32,000 bases of DNA from Flavobacteriaceae bacterium (GCA_965224465.1 OZ245049.1:750001-782000); one strand, 5' to 3'. Positions 11,683 through 30,072 are shown, counted from the stretch's first letter. Made by a program: numbers and translations. Notes: generated by a model from the sequence alone, not told the origin.

Positions 11683-12357
11683 CTAAGTCGGGAGACTTTG
11701 CGCAGCGGGTAAATCTTCTTTAAATAACTCCTCAAATACTTTTAAAATATCTTTATAAGTATCTTTTTTTTTAGCTTGGATTTTTAAAATATTATAATAT
11801 TCAATCAGCTTTTCATTAAAATCCGGATGCTTAACGAGTTTTAATATTAAAATTGTTTTTGGAAATAATATGGAGCCTTGAATATATGGCACTACTTCCT
11901 GAGGTTTTTTATCAGCCAACAAATCTGCCACCTTCTCTAAAGTGTTATATTTCTCAAAAAAAGGTAATGAGTATTGCTGAATGATTTTTTGGATTTGCTC
12001 ATTAACCAATTGAAACGATTTAAGGTCATTTATTTCCGTACTAAAAGCAGAGTAATCAACATTTTCTAACTGGTTCAAAACATTTCTTATGGTTCTTACT
12101 TCTTCGCTTGGTTTCCTAACTCTTGTCTTTTCGTATGCATCATTTAATGTTTTTTCTACATTATGGAATGATATTCCTATTGAAATTCCATCTATGAATA
12201 CTCCGTGAGGAAAATATTTTCTATCTTGTATATATATTAATTTATCATATTTCATCCCTTTTGATATTAGTGAAATACCATTGTCTACCCTAGTAAATCC
12301 CAGAGGCATTTCAAGGATATTCTCCCAATCTGTAACATAGTTTTTCTTTAAATACAT
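11683..12357 (-). CDS. Candidate cognate immunity protein (assigned by position only); cytoplasmic, family not recognised
   Basis: 224-aa ORF whose ATG (12357) lies 4 nt after the toxin stop (12362-12364). It has no signal peptide or hydrophobic segment (MYLKKNYVTDWENILEMPLGF...). I recognised no motif. Confidence 0.8.
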   Translation of the reverse strand: MYLKKNYVTDWENILEMPLGFTRVDNGISLISKGMKYDKLIYIQDRKYFPHGVFIDGISIGISFHNVEKTLNDAYEKTRVRKPSEEVRTIRNVLNQLENVDYSAFSTEINDLKSFQLVNEQIQKIIQQYSLPFFEKYNTLEKVADLLADKKPQEVVPYIQGSILFPKTILILKLVKHPDFNEKLIEYYNILKIQAKKKDTYKDILKVFEELFKEDLPAAQSLPT

Positions 12358-12361
12358 AATG

Positions 12362-15300
12362 TTATATTTTTTTTATTCCTGTAATAATATCCCCGTTTGC
12401 TCCATCGTGCACTTTATACCATTGTATCTCTCCATTAAAACTTAAAATTTCTCCTCCTTTTAATTCATTTTTACTACCATCTATTTTAGATTTTTTCGGA
12501 TTAGAGGCACGAACACTATAACTACCTTTTCCCTTTGCAGCCTTTTGGTTAGGTGTTAAACGAGTGCCACTGCTAAGTTTGTTTTCTATAATTATGATAT
12601 CATCTATATCTCCATAAGCATCATATTTTACAAAAACTTGGTCTGCTACAAAATAATCTACTTTTTTGCCATTAGCCAATGTTACCTCTCCAAAACTTAA
12701 TTGTACTTGTGAGAACATATCGTATTCATCTAGATTTTTGTTAAAGTCTGCACTAAATTTTTGTTTTAATTCCAAGTACTTATCAGAGAGGCGGTTTTTA
12801 AATTTTTCTAGGCAGACAAATTTTTCAAAATCATTTCCCTTTTTTGTTACCACTTTAAAGAAATTGGCTTTAGCCCATTTTCTCCATATTCCTGTACCAT
12901 CTTCACCTAATTCAAAAGCATAGGCAGCATCGTCTTTAAGTAGTTTCCAGGCTTCCACATCTTCTGCCCCAACTATGAGATCTTTAAGCTCATCTCCATT
13001 ACTTTTAGAAGCAAAATCCATGTTTAATTTACTCCAATAGGATTCTCCAATTTCATCAATTTTTTTTATTATGTCAATATTCTCAACTTCATCTAAATTA
13101 GATACCCATGTTTTCAAATTTGGAAAATCATCCATTTTATTCAACAATGCAGTAATAGCCTCACTGTGTTTCACCGTTGTCCCAAGTATTCTCTTAGCCT
13201 CAGCAATATCCCCTACTAAATCATCAACGTTACCTAGTCCAGCTTCAATCTCAAGATGTGTAACCCAAATTTTTGCTTCTTTTATTTTATTAGGGTTCGC
13301 TGTGTTAATCGTTTTAATGTCTCCTTCTGCATCTTTTAATTTGTCTAAGAATAATTTAGCCTGATTTTTACTTGGCAGCGTTTTATTTAGAGTTTTAGTT
13401 TTAGAAAAAATCTTTTTTAAATTAGCTACATTAGATATTTCACCAATGGCAATAGTGGCAGTTAAAACGTTTAGGGCGTCTAAAAAAGCTTTGCCTTGTG
13501 GGCTTAAATTTTCTGTACCTATGGCTGTGGTAGTCAAACTAACTCCTGAGCCAAGCATATCCGCAATAATAAAAGTTTTTCGCATTAAACTTGGAGCCTT
13601 TGTAAGAGCTCCATAACCAGAAGCTAAACTTGCAACATCTACAGTTGCTTGTACCCCATCTACAACTACTTGCGTATTTCCAACATCGCTAGCATAAAAA
13701 GCAACTATGGCAGGGCTAATTACAGGTACATCATCGTTATATTCACTTAACATGCTTAACCCTGATTTATTGGTGAAATAAATTGGAGAATAAGGATGTA
13801 ATGCCAATGGTATAGCTGTAGAGACAATATCATTGCCAACAAATTTATCGGTATAAAGTGAAATTGTGGAAATTGTCTCATCTTCCTCCGATAGCCATTT
13901 TACTCTTGTGTCATACGAGTATAGATTTTTGCCATTCAGAAAATTCCATAACACAGGTAAATCTCCCAAAGTCAAGTTCCAAAAAGACTTGTAATAAAAT
14001 TTGATGTTTCTCTCAATTAACTCATCTTCCTTTAAACTTCCTAGTTCCGTTAAAAAGAATGTTGACTTATTAACATTTAAATCTGCGAGTACATTAATTA
14101 AATTCTTATAATTATCTTCATGAAAATAAGTGTGGTCATTATCTGTTTTATATACTAATTTACGAAGTAGGTTATAGTCTGCAGTTGCTACTTTAGAAAC
14201 ACTGTTTATTCCATCTAATAACCCGTCAACTTCAGTTTTTTTCGTGAATTTTATTAACCTAATTAACTGTTTTTCTTTTTCATTGTCCAGAGTCCACTTG
14301 TCTAGCATTAAGCTAAGTATTATCAATTTTTTATCAATTGATATATCTTCAATCTCATTGTTAGACAAAAATGCAATACATTTATGTAAATCAGATATTT
14401 TACTTTCTCCATCTATTGAACTCAATAAATGTGCACAATCTTTGGTTTCATTTTTTACACCATTTACAAATTGAACATACTTTTGAATTAATGAATCCTT
14501 TTTTAATGTTTTTAATGCCTCGTAAGCTATCTCAGATGGGACACTACTTAAATAGTTAGGAATAACCTTATCCATGGCATCAGGATATGCATTGTTAAGT
14601 ACTGCAATTTTTGAAGCTATAAGATACAGGGAATTCCAATCAATAATTTCCCCTAATATTTCCTTAATTAATTTCCCTTCCAAATTATATAGTTCAGGAA
14701 ACGGAATATTCTTCGCAAAAGTATAGTCATTTTTTTCTAGAACCTCTCCTGTATAGAACTTACTAAACCTATTATAATTTGATAAAATATTTGTCTCCTT
14801 TTGAGAACCCCAAGTTAAATTATCAACTTTATTAAGAGAAAGTCTTCTTGATTTATCTGTTAAAATAAGTATGATTACTTTACCGAAACTTCGTTTATTA
14901 TCTTCAGAAAGCACAAACTCCTCACCTGTGTCAGATTCAAAACCAAAATAATCAAAAGTAAAATCAGTAATAGTTATATCTGTACTTAATTCATTATTTA
15001 CTCTTTTCGCTTTATACTTATTACTATCCAATGTAAAACCTATAAGTGCACCTGTAGGGTATTTTATAAATTCATTTATTTTATCTAAACTAGTAACAAA
15101 CCTGATATTTTCTATTTTTGAAGGAAGTGTGATATAACTTCCGTTCAAAGTCATAAAAGTATATGTTCCGTTCGAATTTTTAAATTTACTAGGAATTCCA
15201 GAAATAGTGGTGCTCTCCCCTTCACTATCCCCATCAAAAACCCCAATCCTCAATTTCGGATTGTGTATGGCTTTCCAATGTACATAAGGTAAATGCTCTC

Positions 15301-18241
15301 CATTATTATAATCTAGTAACCAATTGGTACTTCCTGTAGCATATTTATAACTATGCGTAGAGAATGGATGTTTTAGTTGGAAGGCACCGTGGGCGAGTTC
15401 GTGTGCTACGGTTATCCCCCCAGCCCCAGAAGGGGGAGAATTTGCGGTAAAAATATAACCGAATTGTCTGCCTAGTGGCATGAGTCCTTTTTCTCCTGCG
15501 GAGCTTGGCTGTTTGTCTGTTAAGATTAAATAATAAGCTTCAGGGTTAAAGTTACCATGCTCTTTTAATGCCTTATTTATACTACGCTGTTGCTCCGTGT
15601 ATTGCGCTGCAAAGCCACTTTCTCCACTTTTTATAGTGCCGTCTGGTGTTAAACTGTTTAGGGTCGCTGTAAAATCGTTAATTACAGAAATATTTAGGCT
15701 AACTGCTGCTTGTTGGTAAATAGCTTTTAGTTTTTTTGTAATGGCACTTGTATTCGCATTTGAAGTATTTACCAATACTACGGCCACTTCCTTTATGGCA
15801 ATTTGGTATTGCATAAAAGCCCCTGCTATTTGGTATTTATCGCCTTGTTTTACTAAGGCTTGGGTTTCTATATCGGCATCGCTTAGCGTTCCTTTTAATT
15901 TTAAGGTGTAAGAAGTACTAGTACTATCTACTTTTTTCAGTCCTACACCATCTTTGGTTTTAAAAATAATGTCTTGAGGTTTTATACTATCGTTGGTAAT
16001 TTTGAAATTGGCAACAATAAAAGCTACCTTGCCCTTGGCTACCGCTTTGTAAGGCATGTAATAAGCTGCTCCTAACTTTTTGTACAAGTCCTTGGTTTGT
16101 GATTGGCTTGAGTTGTAGGCGTCGAATCCAGTGGGCAGTGTTGCAGTAGGCAGTTGGGTGAACGTTACGGTGACACCTTGTGCGGTGATGTTGGTGGCTT
16201 CTCCTTTGCTGTTTACGCCTGTGGTATTTTCCACAGTGGTAGTACCGCCTTCGGCTTGTGGACCTAATTCGGTTACATTTCCTTGTTCGTCTACATGGTA
16301 TTTTTTTGGTAGTACTGGCGGTTTTGCTTTGGGGTCTCCGCTATCGGTTATTATATAGTCTTCGCCTCCAGATAATTCTACAATGGGTGCTCCTCCTTTT
16401 CCTACTAATAATATATCTCCGTTGCTTGGGTCTACTAGGATTTCTGCTATTTGGAAGTTGACTTCACTGGTATTTACTTGTCCATCACCTCCATTAAATA
16501 GATCCCCTGTACCCTTTACACTACTCCATGTAGGATCGTAGGTAGTTTTAACGACTCCTTCATACAATTCGTAATCCGTATTTATTTTAATTCCTTTAAA
16601 CTCTACCGCTATTTTGGTATCTGCTAAATAAGGAACTACAATATATCCCGTTCCAGAAAAAGTTCCATTTCCTCCTTGTTTCTGTTTTACTGTCACAGGG
16701 AAATCTCCTGCCGTAAATGTTTCGTTCACGCCAATATTTGCCAATGGCTTAGTGTTGGTAATTTTAATTTCGGGGATAATACCACAGCTATAACTCACCG
16801 TTTCGTCCTTGGTAGGCATTGTAAACTGGTTTACATTGCTGTAAGTAAACGCTTGGTTTAAATCCGTTATCTCATGGCAAGTACCACCCACTCTAAAATC
16901 GTAGGTAACTCCTGCTTGTAAATTTGATACTTGGGCTTGGTTGTTATAAGAAAATATTTCGAACCATTCGGCATCGGCTACATCGGCACGTTTGTATTGT
17001 AAATGATACCTGTTGTGATCTGGATGTGTTTTCCAACTTATTTTCACACGCCCTGTATTTAGCGGTTCTGCCAAAGTCATGGTGGGTGGATAACACTGAT
17101 CTGTATAGGTAAAATAAAATATTTCGCTATACCCATTGTTCTTAAAAACCGAGTTTTCGCTCAATCCTGTTGTAGATTTTGCGCGTACCCGCCAAGCATA
17201 GGTACGCCCTGGCATTAATGGAGGCTTGCTTATGTTGTACGATATGGTAGTGGAATAGGTAGTCTCCGAATGATAAGGAGGCGCTGCTAAAAATCCTGCT
17301 TGAGGATCTATCTGCGTATCCCAAAGCTCACGCAGTTCAAACTCATAACTTACACCACTCGCATTGGCATGCCGTGGTGTCCATTGAAAAGTAATGTTGG
17401 TGGGTTGTATATTAGTCAATTGATCCCCTCGGTTGGGAATATTTAAAAAAGGAGGATCGTTTAACAGTAAAAAGATATTAGAACAGCCTCCCATTTTAGG
17501 ATTGGAGATGCGTTGTCCTGATAAAAAATCGTAGACTTCCCAACATATTTTGTAGCGTCCATCAGGTAGTGGTCTGTTGTATTGTTGTGGACTAATGCCT
17601 ATTAAATTATGTAACTGAAAATAGGCTGCTAAATCTATGTTTGTAAATTGTTGTGTACTTTTCCCATTGAGGTAAATAAAAGGTGCTCCTTGTACAAAAT
17701 TTACAGATTGTATATTGAGTCCCTGTCCTTGTATTTTTAATTTTAAGCGTATTTGACGGTTGCTAATATTGGCATCGTTCATGGTCAAATACAGCCGTAA
17801 TTTTACAGCAGACGTTGTTGCATAACTGTTTAGTTTTGTGTTATAAGGGGGGACTATATTTTGACTTACTTGTACTGGGTGGAGTTGGGCCTGTGTAAGT
17901 TGGCAGGTTAGCAATAGGCAGAATGCAGTTAGCAGTTTTGCAGTTGGCAGTAAGCAGTTGAGCATCTTTGTGAAAATAGTAGGCAATTGCTTGTTGTTGC
18001 GGATATTTGTAGTATGCGGTATGCAGTTGAGCATCTTTGTGGTAAGATTTTTTAAATTAAACTTTGATTTTATTTCACAACAGTGAGTACTGCAAACTGC
18101 ATCCAGAAAACTGCGTACTTTATAGACATCAGTGCTAAAACCGCATACTGCATACTTTAACCTCAACAACATTCCTGCAATCTGCTTACTGCTTACCATG
18201 CGTAACATTTTATTTATTAAATTTGAGAACATTCTTTTCAT
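12362..18241 (-). CDS. Giant modular polymorphic-toxin-like protein: FN3-rich N-terminal region, HExxH metallopeptidase motif, long helical region, hydrophobic pre-toxin helices, PD-(D/E)xK-like C-terminal domain
   Basis: 1959-aa ORF. FN3-like segments include TNITFQWTPRHANASGVSYEFELRELW...RTYAWRVRAKS and GRVKISWKTHPDHNRYHLQYKRADVADAEWFEI...GVTYDFRVGG. The peptidase motif is ITVAHELAHGAFQLKHPF. The C-terminus reads GNDFEKFV...VDYFVAD...IIIIENKLSSGTRLTPNQ. There is no T9SS CTD. The start is ambiguous. The ATG at 18241 overlaps the upstream stop (TAATG), but the first signal-peptide-like segment begins at Met93 (17965: MLNCLLPTAKLLTAFCLLLTCQLTQAQ). Confidence 0.9.
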   Translation of the reverse strand: MKRMFSNLINKMLRMVSSKQIAGMLLRLKYAVCGFSTDVYKVRSFLDAVCSTHCCEIKSKFNLKNLTTKMLNCIPHTTNIRNNKQLPTIFTKMLNCLLPTAKLLTAFCLLLTCQLTQAQLHPVQVSQNIVPPYNTKLNSYATTSAVKLRLYLTMNDANISNRQIRLKLKIQGQGLNIQSVNFVQGAPFIYLNGKSTQQFTNIDLAAYFQLHNLIGISPQQYNRPLPDGRYKICWEVYDFLSGQRISNPKMGGCSNIFLLLNDPPFLNIPNRGDQLTNIQPTNITFQWTPRHANASGVSYEFELRELWDTQIDPQAGFLAAPPYHSETTYSTTISYNISKPPLMPGRTYAWRVRAKSTTGLSENSVFKNNGYSEIFYFTYTDQCYPPTMTLAEPLNTGRVKISWKTHPDHNRYHLQYKRADVADAEWFEIFSYNNQAQVSNLQAGVTYDFRVGGTCHEITDLNQAFTYSNVNQFTMPTKDETVSYSCGIIPEIKITNTKPLANIGVNETFTAGDFPVTVKQKQGGNGTFSGTGYIVVPYLADTKIAVEFKGIKINTDYELYEGVVKTTYDPTWSSVKGTGDLFNGGDGQVNTSEVNFQIAEILVDPSNGDILLVGKGGAPIVELSGGEDYIITDSGDPKAKPPVLPKKYHVDEQGNVTELGPQAEGGTTTVENTTGVNSKGEATNITAQGVTVTFTQLPTATLPTGFDAYNSSQSQTKDLYKKLGAAYYMPYKAVAKGKVAFIVANFKITNDSIKPQDIIFKTKDGVGLKKVDSTSTSYTLKLKGTLSDADIETQALVKQGDKYQIAGAFMQYQIAIKEVAVVLVNTSNANTSAITKKLKAIYQQAAVSLNISVINDFTATLNSLTPDGTIKSGESGFAAQYTEQQRSINKALKEHGNFNPEAYYLILTDKQPSSAGEKGLMPLGRQFGYIFTANSPPSGAGGITVAHELAHGAFQLKHPFSTHSYKYATGSTNWLLDYNNGEHLPYVHWKAIHNPKLRIGVFDGDSEGESTTISGIPSKFKNSNGTYTFMTLNGSYITLPSKIENIRFVTSLDKINEFIKYPTGALIGFTLDSNKYKAKRVNNELSTDITITDFTFDYFGFESDTGEEFVLSEDNKRSFGKVIILILTDKSRRLSLNKVDNLTWGSQKETNILSNYNRFSKFYTGEVLEKNDYTFAKNIPFPELYNLEGKLIKEILGEIIDWNSLYLIASKIAVLNNAYPDAMDKVIPNYLSSVPSEIAYEALKTLKKDSLIQKYVQFVNGVKNETKDCAHLLSSIDGESKISDLHKCIAFLSNNEIEDISIDKKLIILSLMLDKWTLDNEKEKQLIRLIKFTKKTEVDGLLDGINSVSKVATADYNLLRKLVYKTDNDHTYFHEDNYKNLINVLADLNVNKSTFFLTELGSLKEDELIERNIKFYYKSFWNLTLGDLPVLWNFLNGKNLYSYDTRVKWLSEEDETISTISLYTDKFVGNDIVSTAIPLALHPYSPIYFTNKSGLSMLSEYNDDVPVISPAIVAFYASDVGNTQVVVDGVQATVDVASLASGYGALTKAPSLMRKTFIIADMLGSGVSLTTTAIGTENLSPQGKAFLDALNVLTATIAIGEISNVANLKKIFSKTKTLNKTLPSKNQAKLFLDKLKDAEGDIKTINTANPNKIKEAKIWVTHLEIEAGLGNVDDLVGDIAEAKRILGTTVKHSEAITALLNKMDDFPNLKTWVSNLDEVENIDIIKKIDEIGESYWSKLNMDFASKSNGDELKDLIVGAEDVEAWKLLKDDAAYAFELGEDGTGIWRKWAKANFFKVVTKKGNDFEKFVCLEKFKNRLSDKYLELKQKFSADFNKNLDEYDMFSQVQLSFGEVTLANGKKVDYFVADQVFVKYDAYGDIDDIIIIENKLSSGTRLTPNQKAAKGKGSYSVRASNPKKSKIDGSKNELKGGEILSFNGEIQWYKVHDGANGDIITGIKKI
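12365..12830 (-). other. C-terminal ~155-aa putative restriction-endonuclease-fold (PD-(D/E)xK) toxin domain
   Basis: The catalytic-type residues occur in the expected order: E in GNDFEKFV, D in VDYFVAD, E-x-K in IIIIENK (codons at 12578-12586), then TPNQ. This matches the generic E...D...ExK...Q layout of PD-(D/E)xK nucleases. I could not assign a subfamily. Confidence 0.5.
15389..15403 (-). other. HExxH zinc-metallopeptidase motif (HELAH) inside the toxin
   Basis: The reverse complement of gtgggcgagttcgtg is cac gaa ctc gcc cac. The context is GITVAHELAHGAFQLKHPF, with a third His 7 residues after the second. Confidence 0.7.
16311..17970. repeat. Copy 2 of the 1.68-kb direct repeat (partner 1..1681)
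   Basis: See the partner feature. It encodes aa ~93-643 of the 1959-aa protein. Confidence 0.97.
17925..18200. repeat. Short GCAGTWG/CTGCTTAC-type repeat field with an 11-bp perfect inverted repeat, at the 5' end of toxin paralog 2
   Basis: gcagtaagcag (17947-17957) is the exact reverse complement of ctgcttactgc (18182-18192). The unit gcagttgagcatctttg occurs twice, 69 nt apart, giving Met70 and Met93 (KMLNCIP.../KMLNCLL...). The region shares modules with 1820-1897, 2391-2453 and 2748-2810. Confidence 0.9.
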
Positions 18242-21200
18242 TAGTTTCTAAACCTATTAGGGTTCTTAAATTTATAGGTACTATTACTTCCTTCAATCCC
18301 TCCAGGTAACGTGTAGCTTAATTTTGTTTCATAAAAACCATATCTCATAAAGAGGTAATCATCATCCAAGAAATTAAGTAGTGAACTTCCTTTAGGTATC
18401 AATCCGTCCACATAATCATTCAATATTTGAGATTGCATATCTAGCCAATCCGCTTTATAAGCCTCCCCAAGGTTGTAGCGAAAAGGAAAGGTAGTTCTCA
18501 GTGTTTTATCATTTACTTCGTATTCCAAATTAGTTAAATAACTAGATAAAATAGGCATTGCATACTTAGGAGGTGTGCCTAATAATTGAACCTTTCTGTT
18601 TTCAAAAGTATACGTTCCTCCCATTGGATATTGGGCATATAATGGTGGATTTATATCAGCTGTAAAATAGCTATCCTCAAGCGTTGCTTCAATACTAACT
18701 AAAGGTATATGATCTGTAAAATTAGATCCTAAAAGTTCCATAATATCAAAAGGTTCATGATCATCCAGTCTATTGGTCAAATAAATAACATCAGAATAAA
18801 TAATTCCCCAATTATAATCGTTGGTATTGATGGAGTTAATTTTACGTTTGAATGTTTTGTATTTAGACGAACCAAATTCATACGCCAACCGTACTATCTC
18901 TCCATTTTTAGATACATTTTCTGCCTGTTTATTTTCTATGATTGCAGTATTCTCACCAGAATCATCACCTATATCGGCATTATGAGTTGTTGTATCCCCT
19001 CCTCGTTCTACGGCAGCTCCTTTAAGTCTACTAGCAATTTCCATGGTATAGTGTGTTTCTTGGGATATGTTCGGTATTTTATAGCTTAGTTTATTATCCG
19101 AAGTACTGTAATTAAAATCTATATCTTTTGAATTTCTATTGTTAGAACTATACTTCACAAAGCTCTCCCAGGCGGCATCATCAAATAAATAATCTTGCCC
19201 ACGTTTTAATTGAATGTACCCTTGAGCATACTCATTTTCTAAAAAATATTTCTGGTCTACTACTGGATATGCGTATTTGATATTGTGTAAGGGAATATAA
19301 TTGGGAGCTCCACCGGTAGTAAAGGTACGCTCTTCCATTTCTTTTGCTGGTTTACCATCTACCATTATGGGTTGAAAAATTCCATTAATTTTCTCTTTAA
19401 AACTCACCTCTACACGCACTGTTAATTCTTTATTTGGAGGTAAGATGTCTGAAGACACAAAATTAGCTCGGTCTTTAAAGGTTGACCATTCTATGACACC
19501 AGGGATTTCCTTCCCCTTGTATAAAACAGTAAATGTATCCACATCAATGCGGTATGTTTTATCACCATCATCTTCTGGGATAATTAATGGCACGCCCACT
19601 TTCATACTAAAAGTTACTTGCGGAACGGCAAAAATGTCTAAGTCTTTTATACCATTATCAGGTGACACATCTGTAATAATTTTTAAGCCACCCAAAGGTA
19701 TCCCATTATCAAATTCACATTCTTCTCCAATCGTAAGTTTAAATCTAAACTTACCTTTTACCAATCCTCCCAACACATTAAAATTACCCCCCACATAGCC
19801 ACGCATCCAAACTGGATTTGGCGCTTTGGCTTGCAATAATACAGCAGCTCCACCTTTAATGATTGGTATTTTCTTCTTCACAAAAAACAATTTGATTTGA
19901 ATCCCTAATTCTCCTTGTAAATAGGCGTATGCTTGTCCATTTGCATACCAGCCATTAATCCCTACTTGCTTCCCAGTATTGGAACAAGAAGCTTCTCCAT
20001 AATCTCGTAACATGATATCAAAACCAGTACCTGCCTGAAAACGAGCATATAACATCAAAAAACGTAAATCTCCTGTATCAATAGCCAGATCAGCTCCAAA
20101 AGCGAACCCTCCCCCGGACTTTAAGGCATTTTCGTCGCGCATATAATCCAATACATCTGCATCTACTCCTAGAATTTCTGCAACAATTGGAGGCGGAGGC
20201 GGAGATCCTGGAAGCTTGGAACCTACCATTAAGTAGCCCCCTGTTTCCAAAAAAACAGTCCCAACACCTATTTTTATTCCCAACCTATCTTCTGGAGTTC
20301 CTATATAAATATACCATTCTTCTTTTGCAAAATGTAATACTGCCCATCCAGCTCTTCCACCAGGGCCTCTACCCTGAATAAACCCTCCTGGAGTATTAAT
20401 AGTAACATCCAATTCTCCGTGCAATACATCATTTTGAAAATCATAGGTTATTCCCATTTTCGCACAAATATCCATTCCTTTGCTAGGGTCTACTTGTGGA
20501 AAATTATTAGCTGCCTTGTCCATTAAATTTCCCCCAGCCCAAGATTCATCATCTTTTGGCGTACTTAGAAATTTTTCGGCTATATCAACATTTTCTTTTA
20601 CTTTATTTAGAAGGTCTGAAATTTTTTCTATCCCAGGAATTTTAACTCCTAAAAAGGTTGCTTGACCATAAAACCCCATGTTGTTAATTCCGCCATGGCG
20701 ATTAAACAAAATTTCAAAACCAGCACTTCCTTTAATAACTTCGTCCTTCACCATATTAAACATCACCATTGCTTTAAAGCCAAGTCCGAGGTCATGATCA
20801 GGGGTATAACCAATTCCTGTAGGTGAAAATGACGAAGAAAAACCTTTCCGTTTCATCCGATATGATGCGCCACCAGCAAATCCAGTCAAATTCATATAAC
20901 CGGTCCCAATAGAAAAACCATCCACCATAGCTTCAAATTGCCAATACCTAAAATCTGTTTTTCCAAACACTCCTTTAGCCGCAGCTTTTATACCAATACT
21001 TTTAAAATTGGCAGTTAATGATGCTGCAAACCCATCTCCATATTCTGGGTCATCTCGCATTAATTTTAACCATCCTTCTATAGAAAACCCTCCTAAATCC
21101 GCCTTTATAGTAATTTCATCCAATCGCAGTCCATCAAACTTCCATTTTTGACGATAATCTTCTTCTTCAAAACTCCCTATGACTCCTAAGCTGGTTGCAG

Positions 21201-23022
21201 CAGCAAAACCATTATTATCTCCCATTAAATTAATGGCTAAATTAAAATACAGATTGGCATTGACCTCAGTGGCAGTAATACCTATATTAGAAATAGACAC
21301 AGGAAATCCCGCTAGTGAAACCTTGTCTCGATAGCCCATATAATCCACAGCAAAAACAGGTGATTCTGTTTGCAATACTAAATTTTGAAATACAATTCCT
21401 TTAAACTCAACCAATTTTTTTTCTGGACTTCCATTGGGGTTAGTATTCCCAGTTTCAACTTTTTTACCTTCGTCCTCTAAGCTTCCTACTTGACTTGCAC
21501 TAATAGATAAACGTCCATGCAATGTAGCTTTGGGCCTAAACTCCCCATCTCTTACCGCTAGTTCAATAGTACTATTGGGTAACAATTGCCCTTTTGCATT
21601 CCAAAGACTAAAATCTATAATAGAATCGTTGCTTACATTTAATACATACGCATCGGTAGAAATAAGACCTTTGTATTTTAAGCCTATACGATCAGGGCTA
21701 CTTTTTGTGCTTTTTTCTTTTTTAGAAACAGGTAATAAAATGCGTCCTTCAATGGATGCGCCAATAAAATTATTGGCTGCCAACGAAACTTGAATATGGT
21801 CTAAGGAATACGCCCATGCTTTATTATTATTAGTTCTTCCTTGGTCTAAAGTAAAAATATTATCTGCAAAAAAAGTACCTGAAACACCGTAATTATCAAT
21901 AATAAGATGATGTGCACCAAAGGAAACACGTTGATTCTCCCCACGTTTTAAGGTGTTAGACGTCATGAATTCTGTAGGCATTTTAACCTCAACAGTATTT
22001 ACGTACACTCCTCTCCAAGAGCGTTCGTTAGGAATTAATAATCCGTTTTCGTGATAATAAGCAGGAAATGCAACTTCAGGGTCGTTCCGTAAATCACTAA
22101 AATCTAATACCGCATTATTAACAAAAAACTGAAAATTCCCTTTGTAATCTTTATTATTTCGCTTTTTAGCCATCACAAAAGGCTGTAATTCAATACCAAC
22201 TAGTAAATCATTCCAGTCAGAAGCAACAACTTTAAACCCTCCTTTTACACGGTATGGCACTTGAATAACTTGTGTACCCTTCTCTGTTTCTATCGTTTTA
22301 TTTATCTTGGTTTTAGAGAGATTAACAGTTCCTTTTTTTGGACCTTCAGACTCAATAGGCAACAATAATTCTCTCGAAAACTCCACCTCTCCTTCAATCC
22401 CAAGTTCCTTAACTCCATCACAATTAATAGTCACAAAAGTCCTGTTCTCTACATTTCCAGTTTTATAATCAAATCCACCTTTAAGAGTTAACATCCATTT
22501 CCCTCCGTTAAAAGGAAGGTGTAAATCACCTAGCAACACCAAATTAGCATCGCCTATAATCCCTCCTTGATGTGATAGTTTTACATTATTGGCTCCAAAA
22601 AAAAGTTCTATGGGATACCCATTACTATCTGTTTGTGGTAAGCGTACCCGAGCAAAAACTGTTAATTCTGTATAATCTTTATTAAATGTAGCTTCTGTGA
22701 TACCAATAGCATATTCTATATTTTCTCTTGTATGTTTAACCCCTACAGGAAGTTCTTGAATATCTTCGCTTGAAAAACTATCTACCCACGATTCATGCTC
22801 CTCAATAGCTTTAAATGAACCCGCAGCCAGATCTCTATTTTCTTTTACCACATTTGAAACTGGATATAATTTTTCCATAGCTTCCCAAGAAAATTCATGT
22901 TGAATATCCTTAAAACTGGTTGAAACCACATAGGAACTGTCCTTAGCAATTGTTATTTCTTTAGAGAAACCCAAAAAAGTGATCCCCAAAAGAATCAGAG
23001 TAACCCAAGTTCTTATTTTCAT
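18241..23022 (-). CDS. Giant secreted or envelope protein of unknown function, encoded immediately upstream of the toxin
   Basis: 1593-aa ORF with an N-terminal signal or anchor (MKIRTWVTLILLGITFLGFSKE). The body is beta-rich and Gly/aromatic-rich, with a poly-Pro hinge (PGSPPPPPIVAEILG, ~20190-20215) and Ig-like segments near the C-terminus. There is no T9SS CTD, no lipobox and no family motif that I recognise. Confidence 0.85.
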   Translation of the reverse strand: MKIRTWVTLILLGITFLGFSKEITIAKDSSYVVSTSFKDIQHEFSWEAMEKLYPVSNVVKENRDLAAGSFKAIEEHESWVDSFSSEDIQELPVGVKHTRENIEYAIGITEATFNKDYTELTVFARVRLPQTDSNGYPIELFFGANNVKLSHQGGIIGDANLVLLGDLHLPFNGGKWMLTLKGGFDYKTGNVENRTFVTINCDGVKELGIEGEVEFSRELLLPIESEGPKKGTVNLSKTKINKTIETEKGTQVIQVPYRVKGGFKVVASDWNDLLVGIELQPFVMAKKRNNKDYKGNFQFFVNNAVLDFSDLRNDPEVAFPAYYHENGLLIPNERSWRGVYVNTVEVKMPTEFMTSNTLKRGENQRVSFGAHHLIIDNYGVSGTFFADNIFTLDQGRTNNNKAWAYSLDHIQVSLAANNFIGASIEGRILLPVSKKEKSTKSSPDRIGLKYKGLISTDAYVLNVSNDSIIDFSLWNAKGQLLPNSTIELAVRDGEFRPKATLHGRLSISASQVGSLEDEGKKVETGNTNPNGSPEKKLVEFKGIVFQNLVLQTESPVFAVDYMGYRDKVSLAGFPVSISNIGITATEVNANLYFNLAINLMGDNNGFAAATSLGVIGSFEEEDYRQKWKFDGLRLDEITIKADLGGFSIEGWLKLMRDDPEYGDGFAASLTANFKSIGIKAAAKGVFGKTDFRYWQFEAMVDGFSIGTGYMNLTGFAGGASYRMKRKGFSSSFSPTGIGYTPDHDLGLGFKAMVMFNMVKDEVIKGSAGFEILFNRHGGINNMGFYGQATFLGVKIPGIEKISDLLNKVKENVDIAEKFLSTPKDDESWAGGNLMDKAANNFPQVDPSKGMDICAKMGITYDFQNDVLHGELDVTINTPGGFIQGRGPGGRAGWAVLHFAKEEWYIYIGTPEDRLGIKIGVGTVFLETGGYLMVGSKLPGSPPPPPIVAEILGVDADVLDYMRDENALKSGGGFAFGADLAIDTGDLRFLMLYARFQAGTGFDIMLRDYGEASCSNTGKQVGINGWYANGQAYAYLQGELGIQIKLFFVKKKIPIIKGGAAVLLQAKAPNPVWMRGYVGGNFNVLGGLVKGKFRFKLTIGEECEFDNGIPLGGLKIITDVSPDNGIKDLDIFAVPQVTFSMKVGVPLIIPEDDGDKTYRIDVDTFTVLYKGKEIPGVIEWSTFKDRANFVSSDILPPNKELTVRVEVSFKEKINGIFQPIMVDGKPAKEMEERTFTTGGAPNYIPLHNIKYAYPVVDQKYFLENEYAQGYIQLKRGQDYLFDDAAWESFVKYSSNNRNSKDIDFNYSTSDNKLSYKIPNISQETHYTMEIASRLKGAAVERGGDTTTHNADIGDDSGENTAIIENKQAENVSKNGEIVRLAYEFGSSKYKTFKRKINSINTNDYNWGIIYSDVIYLTNRLDDHEPFDIMELLGSNFTDHIPLVSIEATLEDSYFTADINPPLYAQYPMGGTYTFENRKVQLLGTPPKYAMPILSSYLTNLEYEVNDKTLRTTFPFRYNLGEAYKADWLDMQSQILNDYVDGLIPKGSSLLNFLDDDYLFMRYGFYETKLSYTLPGGIEGSNSTYKFKNPNRFRN

Positions 23023-23240
23023 TTTCTAATATTTTAACAAAAAAATCTATTTGAAAACATAAAAAGGAGATAGATTACATCAACAAAAAGATATATGCAT
23101 ACAATTATTGTCGAAAATAGTAAAAAAAAACTGTTAAAAAAGGTTAAACGTAAGTTTTTTCGGATTATCCATAAATACGCGCATATAATGCGAATTATAT
23201 TATTATTTGTAACTAATCCGTTTTTATTTTCAGACTAATT

Positions 23241-23396
23241 ACCAATTACAATCCAAAATAAAAGATATAAATAGTTTATATTACGTTCAAGCCTTGTTAA
23301 AAAATAGAACCATAGCTAAAGCTATCCATCCATTTTCCACCTAGCTAAACCAAAAATAATTCCATTTTTAAACCGTCACTTGGAAGTGTATTTGGT
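23241..23396. repeat. Copy A of a ~160-nt intergenic element (partner 26594..26757)
   Basis: accaattaca-atccaaaataaaagatataaatagttta...catagctaaagctatccatccatttt...ccatttttaaaccgtcacttggaagtgtatttgg aligns in the same orientation with the partner at roughly 80% identity (judged by eye). It contains a conserved hairpin atagc-taaa-gctat. Confidence 0.85.
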
Positions 23397-23461
23397 AGTA
23401 TACTTTCACAAGACAATGTTCTGTTTTGTTTTGTAGTAGTGCCACGGGGAACTATCGCCTT

Positions 23462-23501
23462 AATAAAAATTAAAAGAAGCCTCCTTCTAGAGACTTCTTT
23501 T
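23462..23501 (-). terminator. Rho-independent terminator downstream of the TonB-dependent receptor gene (hairpin usable on both strands)
   Basis: aaaagaagcctc-cttcta-gagacttctttt forms a 12-bp stem. The single C/A mismatch on the plus strand becomes a G-U pair on the minus strand. On the minus strand it is followed by AAUUUUUAUUA. Confidence 0.65.
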
Positions 23502-23660
23502 ATTACAATTTTTGAAATAATTTAATACCTCTTAAAAGCATTAGCCTCATCCCAAGAACATAAGGAAATTCTTGCGGTAAGAAAATTATTTATAGAAGAA
23601 GACTCTCCATAAACTACTTCATCAGCAAGACATTAAACAACTATTTACAACACAATAGCG

Positions 23661-26408
23661 TTAAAATTTATAATTTAACGACACGTTAAACATCGTCCCT
23701 AATTGACTAAAATGAAAACCATCATAAGTCATTTGAGAATAACGTTGATTAAACGTAATTAAATTAGATTGATTCTTTACCTGAGACGCGTCAGCTAAAA
23801 GAGCTTTCCCATCCGAATTTTCTGCTTTAAAGGACCATTCTGGAAGTACATTTAACAGATTATTTACATTTAAAGAAATCGTCATTTTTTCTGTGGCAGT
23901 ATAAGTTACGCCAAGATCCGTAACAACTTTTGGTGTAAATTCAGTTCTTAGATCATTACTCATTCCTTGTTGCTTAAAGGTAGTTTTCCCGAAATAAGTA
24001 TGATTTAACGAAAAACCAAATTTCCCCATATCATAGTTCGCACCTAAGATCCACTTTGTTTTGGGTCTAGAGGTAAAGAATAATGCTTCTTGGGTTGCAT
24101 TTACAATAGATTGACCATTTGCAGTAACAAAACTCGGATTCTTGACAGCACCTTCACGTTTATTCTGTATGGTATAATTACCTGAAAGATTTATGCCTAA
24201 TGTTCCCGAACCTAGGTGTATGTTTTTTTTACTTAACACCACATCAATTCCATCCGTCCTAGTGTCCAACGCATTGGCAAAAAAACTTATATCCGAAAGT
24301 CCTTCAAAAGCAGAAGTACTTGGAGGCGTAACCTCTGCTCCTAATACAATTCTATCTTTTACAGCAATATTATAATAATCTACCGTAAAACTCAGATTAC
24401 CAGGAAGTTTTCCACCTAAACCAATGGTGAAATTATTAGATTTCTCTGCATCCAACTTTTCTAAGCCTAACAAAGCAGCTTCAGGAGAAATATTATTTAC
24501 CAATCCCCCCACTTGAATTCCTTTGCCAGGAACAAAACTATATTGGGATTTTTGAGTATAAATCTGATGTAAGGTTGGGGCTCTAAACCCTGTAGAAATC
24601 GATGTTCTAACCGTAATATTTTTCGTAAATTTAAAACGAGAGCTCATTTTATAAACAAATGCACTTCCAAAATCGGAATAATCCTCTGCACGGACGGTAC
24701 CACTAAGTAAAAAGGCATCACTTATATCGTAATCTAAACTAAAATACCCTCCTAAATTATACCGATTCCACTTTCCTGAGTTCTGAGGAGTATTCCCTGC
24801 GAATGAATCTGCACCACCCCCATCATAAGATGCTATGCTACCTTGGATAACCTCAAAAATTTCGGATCTAAATTCCATTCCAAAACCGATGCTAATTTTA
24901 TCAGACAGCACCTTATTTATATCCATATTCCCTACAGTGTGAGAGAAACTAGTACCTCCTGGATCAAAAGAAACAGGACTGTTTTCACGGTATAAAGAAA
25001 CAGGTTCAAATTTATTTGTGCTCGGATTCCAAGAAGGCGTATAAACAAAATTTCTATTGTGAGAATCATTTACTTTATACAATTGACTATTACCTCCAAT
25101 GGTAAAACTCAAATCTATATTCCAATCATTCTTAATTGTTTTAAAACCAACAGTACCATTATAATCGTTTAGATCTCCTTCAAAAGTAGGTACATATCCA
25201 TCATATCCTCCCGCATTTGAAGGGTGTTTACCAGGAAAAAAATCGGCTAAATAAGGATAATCTGCCAAGGTTCTCCAATAAGGAGTTCTATAATTAGCAA
25301 AACTATTTACTTTTTTATAAACATACGCTGCATTGGCATACATTACGGTATGTTCGCTAAGATCAAATCCTGCATTGATAGAAAATCTTGCCGCAACCGT
25401 CTTAGGCGCTCCATTTATATTTCCTGCATCTGGATGGCGGGACAAAAACTCTTCAACAACTGCTATGTCAGCACCAAAATCTGCAGCTTCACCTGCAGCA
25501 TCAACTTTACCTGGCCTGTTGGATTGGTTTACTTTAGAAAAATCGATGGTATAATTAACAAATCCTTTATCTTTTCCTATGGAAGAACCATCATTAACGG
25601 CGATACCAAACATTTCACCATCACCTTCACTCGTCAATCCAGTTCTCAATGTTATGGATCCCTTATCCACTTCATCTTTTAAAATAATATTCATTACACC
25701 TGCAATAGCATCCGAACCATATTGAGCAGAAGCACCGTCTCTTAATATTTCCACTCGTTTAATAGCATCCGTTGGAATTGCAGAAATATCTGCTCCTGTT
25801 TCTCCTCGGCCAGGAGATGTCTGTGTATACAATAACGAACTTAAATTTTTACGTTTTCCATTGATAAGAATCAATGTTCTACTAGGTCCCATATTTCTAA
25901 TTTCGTAAGGGTCTAACAAAGATGTCGCATCGTTCACGGGGGTTTGCACCGTATTAAATGAAGGAATCTTATACTGTAGTGCCTTATCAAAAGTTACTTG
26001 ACCGGTAGCCATCAACTCCTTGGCACCTACAACATCTACGGGTAAAGGAGTATCCGAATTGCTACGAGGAGCCGTTCTTGAGCCAACAATAATTACTTCA
26101 TCTAAATTTGATGTATCAGATAAAACAACATGTAATACCTGAGGTTTATGGAGTCTTTTTATAAAGGTTCCATAACCAATAGAAGATACTGCAATAGTAA
26201 CAGGGAATTTTTTTACGAGGAGAATAAATTTCCCGTCATCATCTGTAGAAACACCATTTCTTGTGCCTCTTTCAATAACAGATGCGTAAGGAACTGCATT
26301 GCCCTGATGGTCGACAACAGTACCTGTAATCTGTTGTGCATTGATACAAAAAGGAAAAATAAATAAAATAAAAAGGGAAAGTTTTTTTTGAAGTTTAACT
26401 TTTTTCAT
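23661..26408 (-). CDS. TonB-dependent outer-membrane receptor with an N-terminal carboxypeptidase-regulatory-like domain; substrate unknown
   Basis: 915-aa ORF with signal peptide MKKVKLQKKLSLFILFIFPFCINAQ. It has a CarboxypepD_reg-like segment (ITGTVVDHQGNAVPYASVIERGTRNGVSTDDDGKFIL), a plug region (LDEVIIVGSR...RVEILRDGASAQYGSDAIAGVMNIILK), a long beta-barrel and a terminal aromatic residue (...FNVSLNYKF). No susD-like partner is adjacent. Confidence 0.92.
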   Translation of the reverse strand: MKKVKLQKKLSLFILFIFPFCINAQQITGTVVDHQGNAVPYASVIERGTRNGVSTDDDGKFILLVKKFPVTIAVSSIGYGTFIKRLHKPQVLHVVLSDTSNLDEVIIVGSRTAPRSNSDTPLPVDVVGAKELMATGQVTFDKALQYKIPSFNTVQTPVNDATSLLDPYEIRNMGPSRTLILINGKRKNLSSLLYTQTSPGRGETGADISAIPTDAIKRVEILRDGASAQYGSDAIAGVMNIILKDEVDKGSITLRTGLTSEGDGEMFGIAVNDGSSIGKDKGFVNYTIDFSKVNQSNRPGKVDAAGEAADFGADIAVVEEFLSRHPDAGNINGAPKTVAARFSINAGFDLSEHTVMYANAAYVYKKVNSFANYRTPYWRTLADYPYLADFFPGKHPSNAGGYDGYVPTFEGDLNDYNGTVGFKTIKNDWNIDLSFTIGGNSQLYKVNDSHNRNFVYTPSWNPSTNKFEPVSLYRENSPVSFDPGGTSFSHTVGNMDINKVLSDKISIGFGMEFRSEIFEVIQGSIASYDGGGADSFAGNTPQNSGKWNRYNLGGYFSLDYDISDAFLLSGTVRAEDYSDFGSAFVYKMSSRFKFTKNITVRTSISTGFRAPTLHQIYTQKSQYSFVPGKGIQVGGLVNNISPEAALLGLEKLDAEKSNNFTIGLGGKLPGNLSFTVDYYNIAVKDRIVLGAEVTPPSTSAFEGLSDISFFANALDTRTDGIDVVLSKKNIHLGSGTLGINLSGNYTIQNKREGAVKNPSFVTANGQSIVNATQEALFFTSRPKTKWILGANYDMGKFGFSLNHTYFGKTTFKQQGMSNDLRTEFTPKVVTDLGVTYTATEKMTISLNVNNLLNVLPEWSFKAENSDGKALLADASQVKNQSNLITFNQRYSQMTYDGFHFSQLGTMFNVSLNYKF

Positions 26409-26518
26409 GTTTAATATTTTTAAGTTATTTCTTGCAATATTAACAATTTATTAACGTAAACCAAGCATAATTAAATATAATACAATAAAATCACCTAAAC
26501 ATCATCAATAACATATTG

Positions 26519-26547
26519 CAAAAATAAACACATAATCATAAAACAAA
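26519..26547 (-). promoter_or_regulatory. Candidate Bacteroidota-type promoter for the TonB-dependent receptor gene (-33 TTTG / -7 TAnnTTTG)
   Basis: The minus strand reads TATTTTTG (26526..26519), an exact match to TAnnTTTG. A TTTG lies at 26547..26544, leaving a 17-nt spacer, slightly shorter than the usual ~19-21. The box is ~110 nt upstream of the ATG. Confidence 0.3.
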
Positions 26548-26593
26548 AGCGATTATTTTCTAAACAGGAATTTTAGGGATCCATCATAGTGAT

Positions 26594-26757
26594 ACCAATT
26601 ATAAATTAAAATCCAAAATGACCGATATAAATAGTTTGTGCTGCGTTTTAGCGTTGTTGAAAAACAGAACGATAGCTAAGGCTATCCATCCATTTTTTGC
26701 TTAGCTAAAACAAAAAAAAAAATCCATTTCTAAACCGTCACTTGGAAATGTATTTGA
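26594..26757. repeat. Copy B of the ~160-nt intergenic element (partner 23241..23396)
   Basis: accaattataaattaaaatccaaaatgaccgatataaatagtttg...gatagctaaggctatccatccatttt...ccatttctaaaccgtcacttggaaatgtatttga. Confidence 0.85.
26618..26704 (+). CDS. Hypothetical 28-aa micro-ORF inside repeat copy B (very tentative)
   Basis: ATG...TAG encodes MTDINSLCCVLALLKNRTIAKAIHPFFA. The homologous frame in copy A (23264-23344: DINSLYYVQALLKNRTIAKAIHPFST*) ends at the same TAG. Of 15 nucleotide differences, 9 are at third codon positions and 6 codons differ only synonymously. Copy A has no canonical start codon. Confidence 0.2.
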   Translation: MTDINSLCCVLALLKNRTIAKAIHPFFA

Positions 26758-26771
26758 TATTAGATCTGAAT

Positions 26772-26802
26772 AAAAAAAACCCGTGAATAAATTCACAGGT
26801 TT
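26772..26802 (-). terminator. Rho-independent terminator of sucD (bidirectional hairpin)
   Basis: aaacccgtgaa-taaa-ttcacaggttt forms an 11-bp stem with one G-U pair on the minus strand. On the minus strand it is followed by an 8-U tract. It lies 28 nt downstream of the sucD stop. Confidence 0.8.
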
Positions 26803-26829
26803 CTTTATAAAATATTTTATACGAAGAGA

Positions 26830-27702
26830 TTAGCCCAATACTTCGGCAATTTTAGCACCAATTTTTGCTGGAGATTCTACTACGTAGATTCCGTTTTCAG
26901 CTAAGATTTTCATTTTAGCTTCTGCTGTATCGTCAGCTCCTCCAACAATTGCACCTGCATGTCCCATGGTACGACCAGCTGGAGCAGTTTGCCCTGCAAT
27001 AAAACCGACTACTGGTTTGCGATTTCCGTCAGCTTTTACCCAACGGGCAGCTTCCGCTTCCAAATTCCCACCAATTTCACCAATCATTACAATGGCATCA
27101 GTTTCATCATCGTTCATTAAAAGCTCTACAGCTTCTTTTGTAGTGGTTCCAATAATTGGATCTCCACCAATACCTATGGCTGTTGTAATACCATAACCTT
27201 GTTTTACTACCTGATCAGCAGCTTCGTAGGTTAAAGTTCCTGATTTAGAAACAATTCCAACACGTCCTTTTTTAAAGATAAATCCTGGCATGATTCCAAC
27301 TTTAGCCTCATCAGCAGTAATTACTCCTGGGCAGTTAGGACCAATCAAACGACAGTCTTTAGATTTAATATATTCTTTTACTTTTACCATATCCGCCACT
27401 GGGATTCCTTCGGTAATACAAATAATTACTTTAATTCCTGCCTCTGCTGCTTCCATAATTGCATCTGCGGCAAATGCAGGTGGTACAAATATAATACTTG
27501 TATCAGCTCCAGCCGTATCTACAGCTTCTTTCACAGTGTTAAATACAGGTTTGTCTAAGTGAGTTTGACCGCCTTTACCTGGGGTAACACCACCTACAAC
27601 ATTGGTTCCATACTCCATCATTTGACCCGCGTGAAACGTACCTTCTCCTCCAGTAAATCCTTGAACTATAACTTTTGAATTTTTATTAACTAAAACACTC
27701 AT
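26830..27702 (-). CDS. sucD: Succinate--CoA ligase (ADP-forming) subunit alpha
   Basis: 290-aa ORF. It shows [53 protein letters not shown], and the phosphohistidine loop [11 protein letters not shown]. Confidence 0.95.
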
Positions 27703-27746
27703 ATGGTTTAAAATTTTTAATTATTTGCTCTTTCTTTTATTGAATA

Positions 27747-27754
27747 CAAATGTA
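27747..27754 (-). promoter_or_regulatory. Candidate -7 box (TAcaTTTG) for sucD
   Basis: The minus strand reads TACATTTG, an exact match to the Bacteroidota TAnnTTTG consensus. It lies 45 nt upstream of the sucD ATG in the 82-nt spacer after lpxD2. I saw no clean -33 TTTG. Confidence 0.3.
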
Positions 27755-27784
27755 ATTGATTAATTAAATTACGAAAACATTTTC

Positions 27785-28708: not shown

Positions 28709-28711
28709 GAA

Positions 28712-29278
28712 TTAAGCTTTTACTCTTTCTTGATACGTCCCTTTGGTCGTTTCAATTTTAATTTTATCTCCTTCGTTAATAAATAAAGGAACATTTACCT
28801 TTGCTCCAGTCTCTACAGTTGCAGGTTTGGTAGCATTTGTAGCCGTATTTCCTTTCACTCCAGGTTCTGCATGCGTCACTTCTAAAATAACACTCAACGG
28901 CATGTCTACAGACAATGGTGAATCATCTTCTGTATTTATAATTACAGTTACAATTTCACCTTCTTTTAACAAGTCAGCGCCGTCAATAATATTTTTTTGC
29001 AATGTTATTTGATTGTAATCAATCACATTCATAAAGTGCATAAGGTCACCTTCTGGATATAAAAATTGAAACTTATGAGTTTCTACTCTCACTTCATCAA
29101 TTTTACGACCTGCAGGAAAAGTGTTGTCCAATACTTTTCCAGAGGTTACACTCTTTAATTTGGTACGTACAAACGCAGGACCTTTTCCTGGTTTAACGTG
29201 TAAAAATTCTATAACTTTAAAAATGTCGTTGTTATGTCTGATACATAAACCGTTTCTAATGTCTGATGTTGATGCCAT
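28712..29278 (-). CDS. efp: Translation elongation factor P
   Basis: 188-aa ORF: MASTSDIRNGLCIRHNNDIFKVIEFLHVKPGKGPAFVRTKLKSVTSGKVLDNTF... The length and KPGKG loop are typical of EF-P. Confidence 0.95.
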   Translation of the reverse strand: MASTSDIRNGLCIRHNNDIFKVIEFLHVKPGKGPAFVRTKLKSVTSGKVLDNTFPAGRKIDEVRVETHKFQFLYPEGDLMHFMNVIDYNQITLQKNIIDGADLLKEGEIVTVIINTEDDSPLSVDMPLSVILEVTHAEPGVKGNTATNATKPATVETGAKVNVPLFINEGDKIKIETTKGTYQERVKA

Positions 29279-29287
29279 AATTGTATG

Positions 29288-30070: not shown

Positions 30071-30072
30071 AT

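Follow-up and report, generated by a model that had tools for sequence, protein, structure and literature searches.

Gene A, an open reading frame (ORF) of 1593 amino acids with an ATG start, lies at 18241-23022 on the minus strand of a 32,000-nucleotide stretch of DNA from a Flavobacteriaceae bacterium (GCA_965224465.1 OZ245049.1:750001-782000), referred to below as the window, in whose coordinates positions are given. A first-pass annotation, made from the sequence, had assigned its product to no recognisable family and proposed it as the dedicated export or assembly partner of the toxin encoded behind it. The ORF is present in the translation as described, and A is a core member of the module of the TANFOR polymorphic toxins; these occur together with a constant set of six protein families, of which three (A, G and most of D) are unannotated. 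The dedicated functional link between A and the toxin is well supported by genomics. In addition, the A protein is real, conserved and exported, with a fold that has no solved relative, and it belongs to a large, unnamed Bacteroidota family having neither a domain model nor a structural relative; this family is new, whereas the locus type was already known.

Gene A and its surroundings

The genes of the locus are all encoded on the minus strand. After A comes B1 (12362-17965, in an ORF open to 18241), a TANFOR-type polymorphic toxin gene, then gene C (11683-12357), whose 224-amino-acid product is the candidate immunity protein of B1. They are followed by gene D (9277-11397), a 706-amino-acid protein with a signal peptide and Fn3-like repeats from a family of about 693 amino acids, and gene E (4203-9272), of 1689 amino acids, having SprB repeats and a type A C-terminal sorting domain (CTD) for type IX secretion (T9SS). 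Gene F (2821-4203) codes for a 460-amino-acid PKD-domain protein, probably a lipoprotein; members of its family have about 450 amino acids and three PKD domains, and homologues carry the lipoprotein signal ...LFGC|AKEE. A second TANFOR toxin gene, B2 (1-1676; ORF 3-1901), takes the canonical position after F and runs off the start of the window, its start being probably at nucleotide 1676.

Upstream of A, the 638-nucleotide intergenic region (23023-23660) is as long as first described, and the terminator proposed there corresponds to a T-tailed hairpin with a 14-bp stem (23502-23471, minus strand) just 3' of a TonB-dependent receptor gene. Thus, A is the first gene of its transcription unit in the genome of the window. 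Its description as the first gene of the block holds in the window but not in other lineages, where the F and G genes precede A within the same tight operon. A sigma-70 promoter scan was uninformative, giving 20 sites against 22 expected, as Bacteroidota promoters differ from that consensus. Farther upstream, 23661-31971 of the same strand encodes the 915-amino-acid TonB-dependent receptor and six more ORFs of 167-464 amino acids, which are separated from A by the terminator-like hairpin and probably lie outside the module.

The N-terminal signal or anchor of A was recovered as a probable Sec signal peptide at residues ~1-20 (22963-23022), with the hydrophobic sequence MKIRTWVTLILLGITFLGFS|KE and, equally as first noted, no lipobox, since the N-terminus of the translation has no cysteine. 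The AlphaFold2 (AF2) model places a helix at residues 3-16 with a disordered stretch after it, and one homologue has the cleavable-type N-terminus ...SFG|QQ, so that cleavage of the signal peptide is probable, as judged from these sequences.

Regarding the family, A has zero matches in Pfam (down to E<=10) and NCBIfam, which bears out both the unrecognisable family and the missing T9SS CTD, and no match in the Protein Data Bank (PDB) by single-sequence or profile search. A word-indexed search returned 542 matches, the best 120 of them at 50-76% identity over at least 93% of the length in all but two, from Tamlana, Tenacibaculum (including T. maritimum), Polaribacter, Aquimarina, Flavobacterium (including F. 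columnare and F. psychrophilum) and others, labelled "hypothetical" almost throughout. The exhaustive profile search gathered 2493 clusters at 50% identity (E<=1e-3), 1788 of them at E<=1e-30; most are 1450-1650 amino acids long. Genome loci extend the family to Capnocytophaga, Apibacter, Bergeyella and Saccharicrinis. Two homologues bear the UniRef name "Cell surface protein SprA", which is unsupported, as neither PF14349 nor TIGR04189 was among the matches. No paper on the A family was found in the literature searched, and PMC9950754 proved to be unrelated. Several genomes hold two copies of A, and with it of the module (L009/L013, L014/L015, L058/L065, L005/L076 and, in Flavobacterium hercynium, L047/L072), those of F. 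hercynium lying less than ~15 kb apart.

Gene A in the core of the TANFOR-toxin module

The TANFOR toxin class was defined by Jana, Salomon and Bosis in 2020, who described neighbourhoods enriched in SprB, Fn3, PKD and T9SS-CTD domains and did not settle how the toxins are exported, offering the T9SS as a speculation (PMC7073777). A TANFOR protein of T. forsythia has been detected in a vesicle proteome (PMC10682907), and no later work on TANFOR export was found in the literature searched. In the window, B1 is composed of a signal peptide, a weak TANFOR domain, Fn3 domains, the sequence HELAH at ORF residue 947 and a variable C-terminus. The toxin had been read as having no known secretion signal, which does not hold given its Sec signal peptide and the weak TANFOR (TIGR02542) domain. 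This model is the sole NCBIfam match of B1 (E 0.0064, 16.4 bits, model positions 8-135 of 145), as well as the sole match for two and the best match for another two of four B homologues (21.6-41 bits, E 1.6e-10 to 1.6e-4); in four of these five proteins the alignment takes in most of the model. Moreover, two close homologues (P0301 and P0339) are named "TANFOR domain-containing protein" by NCBI/JGI, and the D, E and F neighbourhood, together with the synteny tables, matches the SprB/Fn3/PKD/T9SS-CTD enrichment of TANFOR genes (Table 1 of PMC7073777). B is thus read, from its sequence and neighbourhood, as a probable divergent member of the TANFOR polymorphic toxins.

The N-terminal ~1000 amino acids of B are conserved at 35-64% identity in the best segments, and the C-terminal ~960 are essentially not, having a single weak match of 28%. 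The tip is an AHH nuclease in L083, and Aquimarina sp. W85 (L166) encodes a separate 1560-amino-acid deaminase toxin with a SUKH immunity gene beside a 740-amino-acid TANFOR-Fn3 protein. Most homologues of the B N-terminus have only ~720-780 amino acids, with the TANFOR, Fn3 and beta domains and no toxin (including L166 10001-12223), which suggests that the TANFOR core of ~730 amino acids is a structural component, bearing its toxins as fusions or accompanied by them as separate genes nearby. HELAH sits in the conserved middle region, and an HExxH-type motif in polymorphic toxins more probably marks a peptidase for processing than the toxic activity. No family match was obtained for gene C or for the B1 tip, the latter also being without similarity to the BaCT locus of F. 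hydatis (L055), a species whose strain DSM 2063 has the validated BaCT toxin WP_081912444.1; gene C is a candidate immunity gene by its position, following the gene order of polymorphic toxins (PMC7073777). At residues ~1845-1890, the B1 tip shows a D...(D)IIIIENK motif reminiscent of PD-(D/E)xK nucleases.

Co-occurrence, a check put forward at first reading, was studied in 83 A-anchored loci (80 genome loci around homologues and three more), where ORFs were labelled by BLAST with the window proteins and a partner was counted within ~10 kb of A, a flank that often ends before B. At least one of the five recurring partners is present in 78/83 loci, which upholds the partnership between A and the toxin module: F in 64/83, D in 53/83, E in 52/83, G in 28/83, and B in 35/83 by ORF or 43/83 by tblastn with its conserved N-terminal or middle region, B being often cut by the flank. 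The gene order is A-D-E-F-B in marine genera and B...F-G-A in Flavobacterium, Capnocytophaga and Saccharicrinis, while L047-L049 present a single tight operon, F-G-A-D-E-B, with gaps of 2-17 nucleotides. An independent, G-anchored sampling of metagenomes gave a similar picture, as 38 loci of at least 15 kb included A in 28, B in 28, F in 31, and A or B in 34. The immediate succession of A and toxin, on which the idea of a giant two-partner-style exporter had been built, is in turn rare: D directly follows A in 49/83 loci, and B does so only in L020, L083 and the window.

The G family, which precedes A directly in 26 loci, consists of proteins of 560-820 amino acids having a signal peptide, alternating strands rich in Asn, Ser, Thr and Tyr, and the end ...NFNYSYSF. 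Examples lie at L049 8220-9902, L022 19143-20951, L055 7316-9772 and L084 1178-2884; the core ends in ...NYSYSF (...YAYSF in L084) and is prolonged by tails in L022 and L055, and the 818-amino-acid form has an extra helical C-terminal extension. G is tightly linked to F and A and has no Pfam or PDB relative, and its sequence reads as that of a textbook, if predicted, outer-membrane barrel. A 591-amino-acid gene at the place expected for G in Aquimarina sp. W85 was considered and is not G.

These data also bear on an unlikely explanation, in which A would be a cell-surface adhesin or gliding-related structural protein of an SprB-like filament module with D, E, F and G, where toxin genes merely accumulate and A plays no part in toxin export. 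It agrees with E being an SprB-repeat T9SS cargo, with D and F being made of Ig (immunoglobulin)-like repeats typical of surface fibres, with A being the most conserved member while the toxins vary, and with some loci showing no B within their flanks. However, B is found in nearly every locus whose flank reaches its expected position, the toxin-free ~730-amino-acid B core is itself conserved in the cluster, and B and A are joined in conserved fusion proteins.

Three such natural TANFOR-Fn3::A fusions, from three lineages, were identified: P0196 (2263 amino acids; L084 10001-16792), P0267 (2207 amino acids) and P0210 (1951 amino acids). Their N-termini consist of a signal peptide followed by the counterpart of B residues ~103-566 (TANFOR, two Fn3 and the beta domain), of which P0210 keeps only ~377-564, and they carry A residues ~66-1574; in P0196, as read, an acidic helical linker of ~360 amino acids leads to a complete A without its own signal peptide. 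The fusions are pairwise 35-37% identical over their full length, and P0196 and P0267 are collinear over ~2200 amino acids, indicating an old conserved architecture and not an accident of gene calling. The contig of P0196 presents, in order, a PorP/SprF-OmpA gene, G, a 1697-amino-acid toxin, three small genes, the fusion and D, the toxin being a separate protein that keeps the HExxH middle region and has no TANFOR domain. These fusions are the best indication that A and the TANFOR-Fn3 module operate physically close to each other, either of the two being a possible carrier. A profile-profile comparison of A with the conserved 1050 amino acids of B gave a probability of 0.1 and no common domain.

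The order in the window can be related to a recent duplication. The segment 16311-18100 (minus strand), comprising the leader and the 5' part of the toxin gene, is 95.5% identical to 1-1832, and B2 has the leader and the first ~640 residues in common with B1. This indicates, at the sequence level, that B1 and gene C were probably inserted between A and D by a recent duplication bearing a different toxin tip, as is typical of polymorphic-toxin loci. Consequently, the toxin stands directly after A because its 5' half, a new tip and a candidate immunity gene were recently duplicated into the A-D junction. The overlap between the A stop codon and a toxin ATG (TAATG, 18239-18243) does exist, but that ATG is probably not the toxin start. 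All B homologues with an intact N-terminus start at the signal peptide, continuing with ..AQ|(L/V/R)(Y/F)PV(Q/N)...PY(S/T), and this corresponds to Met93 of the ORF (nucleotide 17965), ~275 nucleotides downstream of TAATG; both toxin copies have an open leader of ~75-92 codons before the signal peptide. As an extension of ~90 residues would block Sec targeting, B1 most likely starts at Met93, and the TAATG overlap would be incidental. No RNA family was recognised in a scan of the A-B1 junction.

Between F and B2, a Flavo-1 RNA (RF01705), scoring 59.8 bits where the gathering score is 42, lies at 2507-2581 on the plus strand, opposite to the operon, flanked by 69-nucleotide direct repeats that are 90% identical (2385-2453 and 2741-2809). 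Repeats related to these and rich in CTACTGCC/GCAGT fill the leaders of both toxin genes (1626-1753 and 1833-1878). A 112-amino-acid 23S rRNA-intervening-sequence protein (IVP; PF05635, with a weak bAvd-like match) is inserted at 2004-2342 (minus strand), also between F and B2. A similar small gene lies within the module of Aquimarina sp. W85 (L166 6345-6704), and tblastn with the PF05635 protein of the window also matches L149 and L033 inside their module copies, the association being sporadic.

Predicted structure and possible role of A

Two AF2 models were obtained, model 1 for residues 1-1200 (31-sequence alignment; mean predicted local distance difference test (pLDDT) 68, predicted template modelling score (pTM) 0.40) and model 2 for residues 851-1593 (50 sequences down to 28% identity; pLDDT 86.6, pTM 0.56). 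Together they give a signal helix, a disordered linker, short helices at 46-90 and a beta-hairpin meander of ~55 amphipathic strands at residues 93-1100 (19723-22746; strands by DSSP), broken by a low-confidence helical insert at 792-849. The Gly/aromatic-rich beta body first described is confirmed, Gly reaching 13-16% over residues 539-1100 and Phe 9.5% in 539-790, with a strongly beta character. The PGSPPPPP motif, likewise confirmed, occupies residues 938-945 (20188-20211) and is near-invariant across the family; it opens the most conserved stretch of A, ~938-1102, which holds the invariant Cys1013 and Cys1102, and it is followed by four very long hairpin strands of 17-21 residues. The Ig-like C-terminal segments were also found, as two beta-sandwiches in model 2 (~1116-1333; 19024-19677), followed by a disordered, poorly conserved loop (1337-1372) and an alpha/beta domain (1375-1593; 18244-18900) that ends in ...YKFKNPNRFRN.

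When the models were compared by Foldseek, as had been advised at first reading, the top 50 matches listed per search against the PDB stayed at a template modelling (TM) score of at most 0.32 and those in BFVD at most 0.24, all of them generic beta-barrel or Ig-like matches. For the beta part, the PDB matches were LptD, SlpA, TonB-dependent transporters, ushers, porins, BamA and ApoB100, the best being barrels yet at TM 0.06-0.26 only; for the C-terminal part, they were tandem Ig, Fn3, cadherin and S-layer domains (TMt up to 0.32). Membership of A in several known classes was rejected on these results together with the sequence. T9SS cargo is disfavoured by the absence of type A (TIGR04183/PF18962) and type B (PF13585) sorting domains, and RHS/YD proteins by the absence of any RHS_repeat match and of Rhs, TcB or teneurin structures among the Foldseek matches listed. 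The SprA/Sov class gave neither SprA_N (PF14349) nor TIGR04189, with SprA itself (8gl8_A) at rank 38 and TM 0.09/0.06, and the Omp85/TpsB class gave no Pfam match (POTRA, Bac_surface_Ag/ShlB) for A, nor for G. The remaining class of this group, TamB/AsmA, is considered next.

A TamB/AsmA-like A, that is, a periplasm-spanning beta-groove moving lipid or protein between the membranes, is very improbable and was already disfavoured. A is superficially like TamB in size, in the hydrophobic helix at its N-terminus and in its extended beta body, and Foldseek lists the ApoB100 beta-belts; however, no AsmA, AsmA_2 or TamB (DUF490) domain was matched in Pfam, even at E<=10, or in NCBIfam, and no TamB or AsmA structure was among the Foldseek matches listed. 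Furthermore, the strands do not follow the repeating groove of five strands plus a loop, the N-terminus resembles a cleavable signal peptide in homologues, and in two full-length fusion proteins it is replaced by an extracytoplasmic module of 760-830 amino acids.

The view of the first-pass annotation, namely that A itself is the outer-membrane translocon, either as a giant barrel like SprA/LptD or as a two-partner analogue, deserves more weight and is still rather unlikely. The toxin has no T9SS CTD and needs some outer-membrane route, and the ~55 amphipathic Gly/aromatic-rich strands with short turns would suit one, as would the best Foldseek matches, all to barrels of the outer membrane: LptD (E 1.4e-5), TonB-dependent transporters, ushers and BamA. 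Nonetheless, the amphipathic pattern, in which hydrophobic and polar faces alternate, is expected for any sheet with one buried face and thus cannot tell a membrane barrel from a soluble sheet. TM to any barrel is 0.1-0.26 even with the model of pLDDT 86.6, strands extend up to 17-21 residues, and the C-terminus, where an outer-membrane beta-signal would end in an aromatic residue, has none and belongs to a third of the protein that is Ig-like and alpha/beta. A also lacks any Omp85, POTRA, SprA, LptD, TamB or AsmA signature, and the module already encodes the putative barrel G, with its ...NYSYSF end, which fits the role of pore better.

A further explanation, improbable as well and somewhat more so than the translocon or the adhesin, is that A is exported, perhaps through G, and inserts its beta-hairpin sheet into the outer membrane of the prey to pass the toxin. 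The FHA-2 region of CdiA has been proposed to act in this way on the target membrane. The long amphipathic hairpins and the extreme-conservation block 938-1102 are consistent with such an insertion, as are the placement of G directly before A and the fusions, in which A bears the N-terminal TANFOR-Fn3 module of the toxins, as if trafficked alike. On the other hand, there is no sign of A leaving the cell, Foldseek gave no match to a pore-forming toxin fold, and canonical A has no TANFOR domain.

The reading preferred here, which we hold to be slightly better than an even chance, is that A is the Sec-exported, almost all-beta core subunit of a six-family Bacteroidota envelope module serving TANFOR toxins, which probably helps to export or display them, perhaps as a scaffold or conduit; its details are less certain than the whole. 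The signal peptide and the invariant Cys1013 and Cys1102 are extracytoplasmic features of A. After cleavage of the signal peptide, A would join G, F and D in an assembly at the cell surface or outer membrane; the gene for D is often directly adjacent to that for A or overlaps it. A would then offer its extensive beta-sheet, as scaffold or conduit, for docking of the TANFOR-Fn3 module, allowing export or display of the toxin, whose HExxH region would probably release the C-terminal toxin.

Several points weigh against this reading. All the evidence tying A to B is genomic, and the structure offers no functional analogue (TM <=0.32), so that "scaffold or conduit" is guessed from how large and conserved A is and from its context. 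It is equally conceivable from the fusions that A is a passenger of whatever recognises TANFOR, and all TANFOR scores (16-41 bits) are under the curated cut-off of 67 bits. B is seen in 43 of the 83 A-anchored loci, where the limit of the flanks explains many misses but not demonstrably all, and no partner lies within the flanks at L068 (Capnocytophaga sputigena) and L079 (Bergeyella). Lastly, the 10 kb downstream of B in Aquimarina sp. W85 did not reveal G, nor was it located in the genome of the window, for which database records of the window's F, IVP and E proteins were sought and none obtained.

A bolder version, which can be advanced only tentatively, is that A, G, F and D, with the T9SS-delivered E, constitute a previously unrecognised Bacteroidota export and delivery machine, in which the TANFOR-Fn3 core docks on A and the toxins are fused or separate cargo. 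If true, A would be the defining subunit, with a fold lacking a solved relative, and the machine would represent a new outer-membrane export pathway for polymorphic toxins.

Relation to known secretion and toxin systems

The present data bring to light a family of ~2500 clusters without a Pfam model or structural relative, which is the largest and most conserved of the three unannotated families and is fused in some lineages to the N-terminal module of the toxins. The question of TANFOR toxin export is thereby narrowed to a short list of candidate genes, in tractable Flavobacterium, and the A family also occurs in the fish pathogens F. psychrophilum, F. columnare and Tenacibaculum maritimum.

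Type VI secretion system (T6SS) effectors occur as specialised or cargo effectors on VgrG/PAAR, which serves as an analogy for the B core. Similarly, this core carries the toxin as a C-terminal extension, as in the window, or adjoins a separate toxin gene (L166 and L084); however, there is no homology to the T6SS and no contractile machinery in the locus.

Regarding large outer-membrane proteins, the long antiparallel hairpin meanders of A recall LptD, TonB-dependent transporters, ushers and SprA/Sov (weak Foldseek matches), and the F-G pair of lipoprotein and barrel recalls LptE-LptD or SusD-SusC. Unlike these barrels, A shows TM scores of 0.06-0.26, no sequence similarity, no beta-signal and a soluble-looking C-terminal third.

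The CdiB-CdiA system (type Vb) is comparable in having a polymorphic toxin, whose N-terminal trafficking region is conserved and whose tip varies, and an immunity gene, as well as a dedicated outer-membrane barrel in the operon and very large beta-rich proteins. In contrast, A and G are without Omp85/POTRA, A is not a beta-helix and has no two-partner secretion (TPS) domain, and the TANFOR module has six conserved families, including a T9SS cargo.

The closest resemblance is to the TANFOR loci surveyed previously (PMC7073777). B has their signal peptide, TANFOR-like domain, Fn3 domains, variable toxin tip and downstream immunity gene, even though the TANFOR match in the window is below the curated threshold of the class, and SprB-repeat, Fn3, PKD and T9SS-CTD neighbours are likewise present; L055 comes from the F. 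hydatis DSM 2063 contig family that was studied there too. Only neighbours with annotated domains were scored in that survey, which therefore could not see A, G and most of D and makes no mention of them. A is, in this comparison, an undescribed component of a known class of toxin systems.

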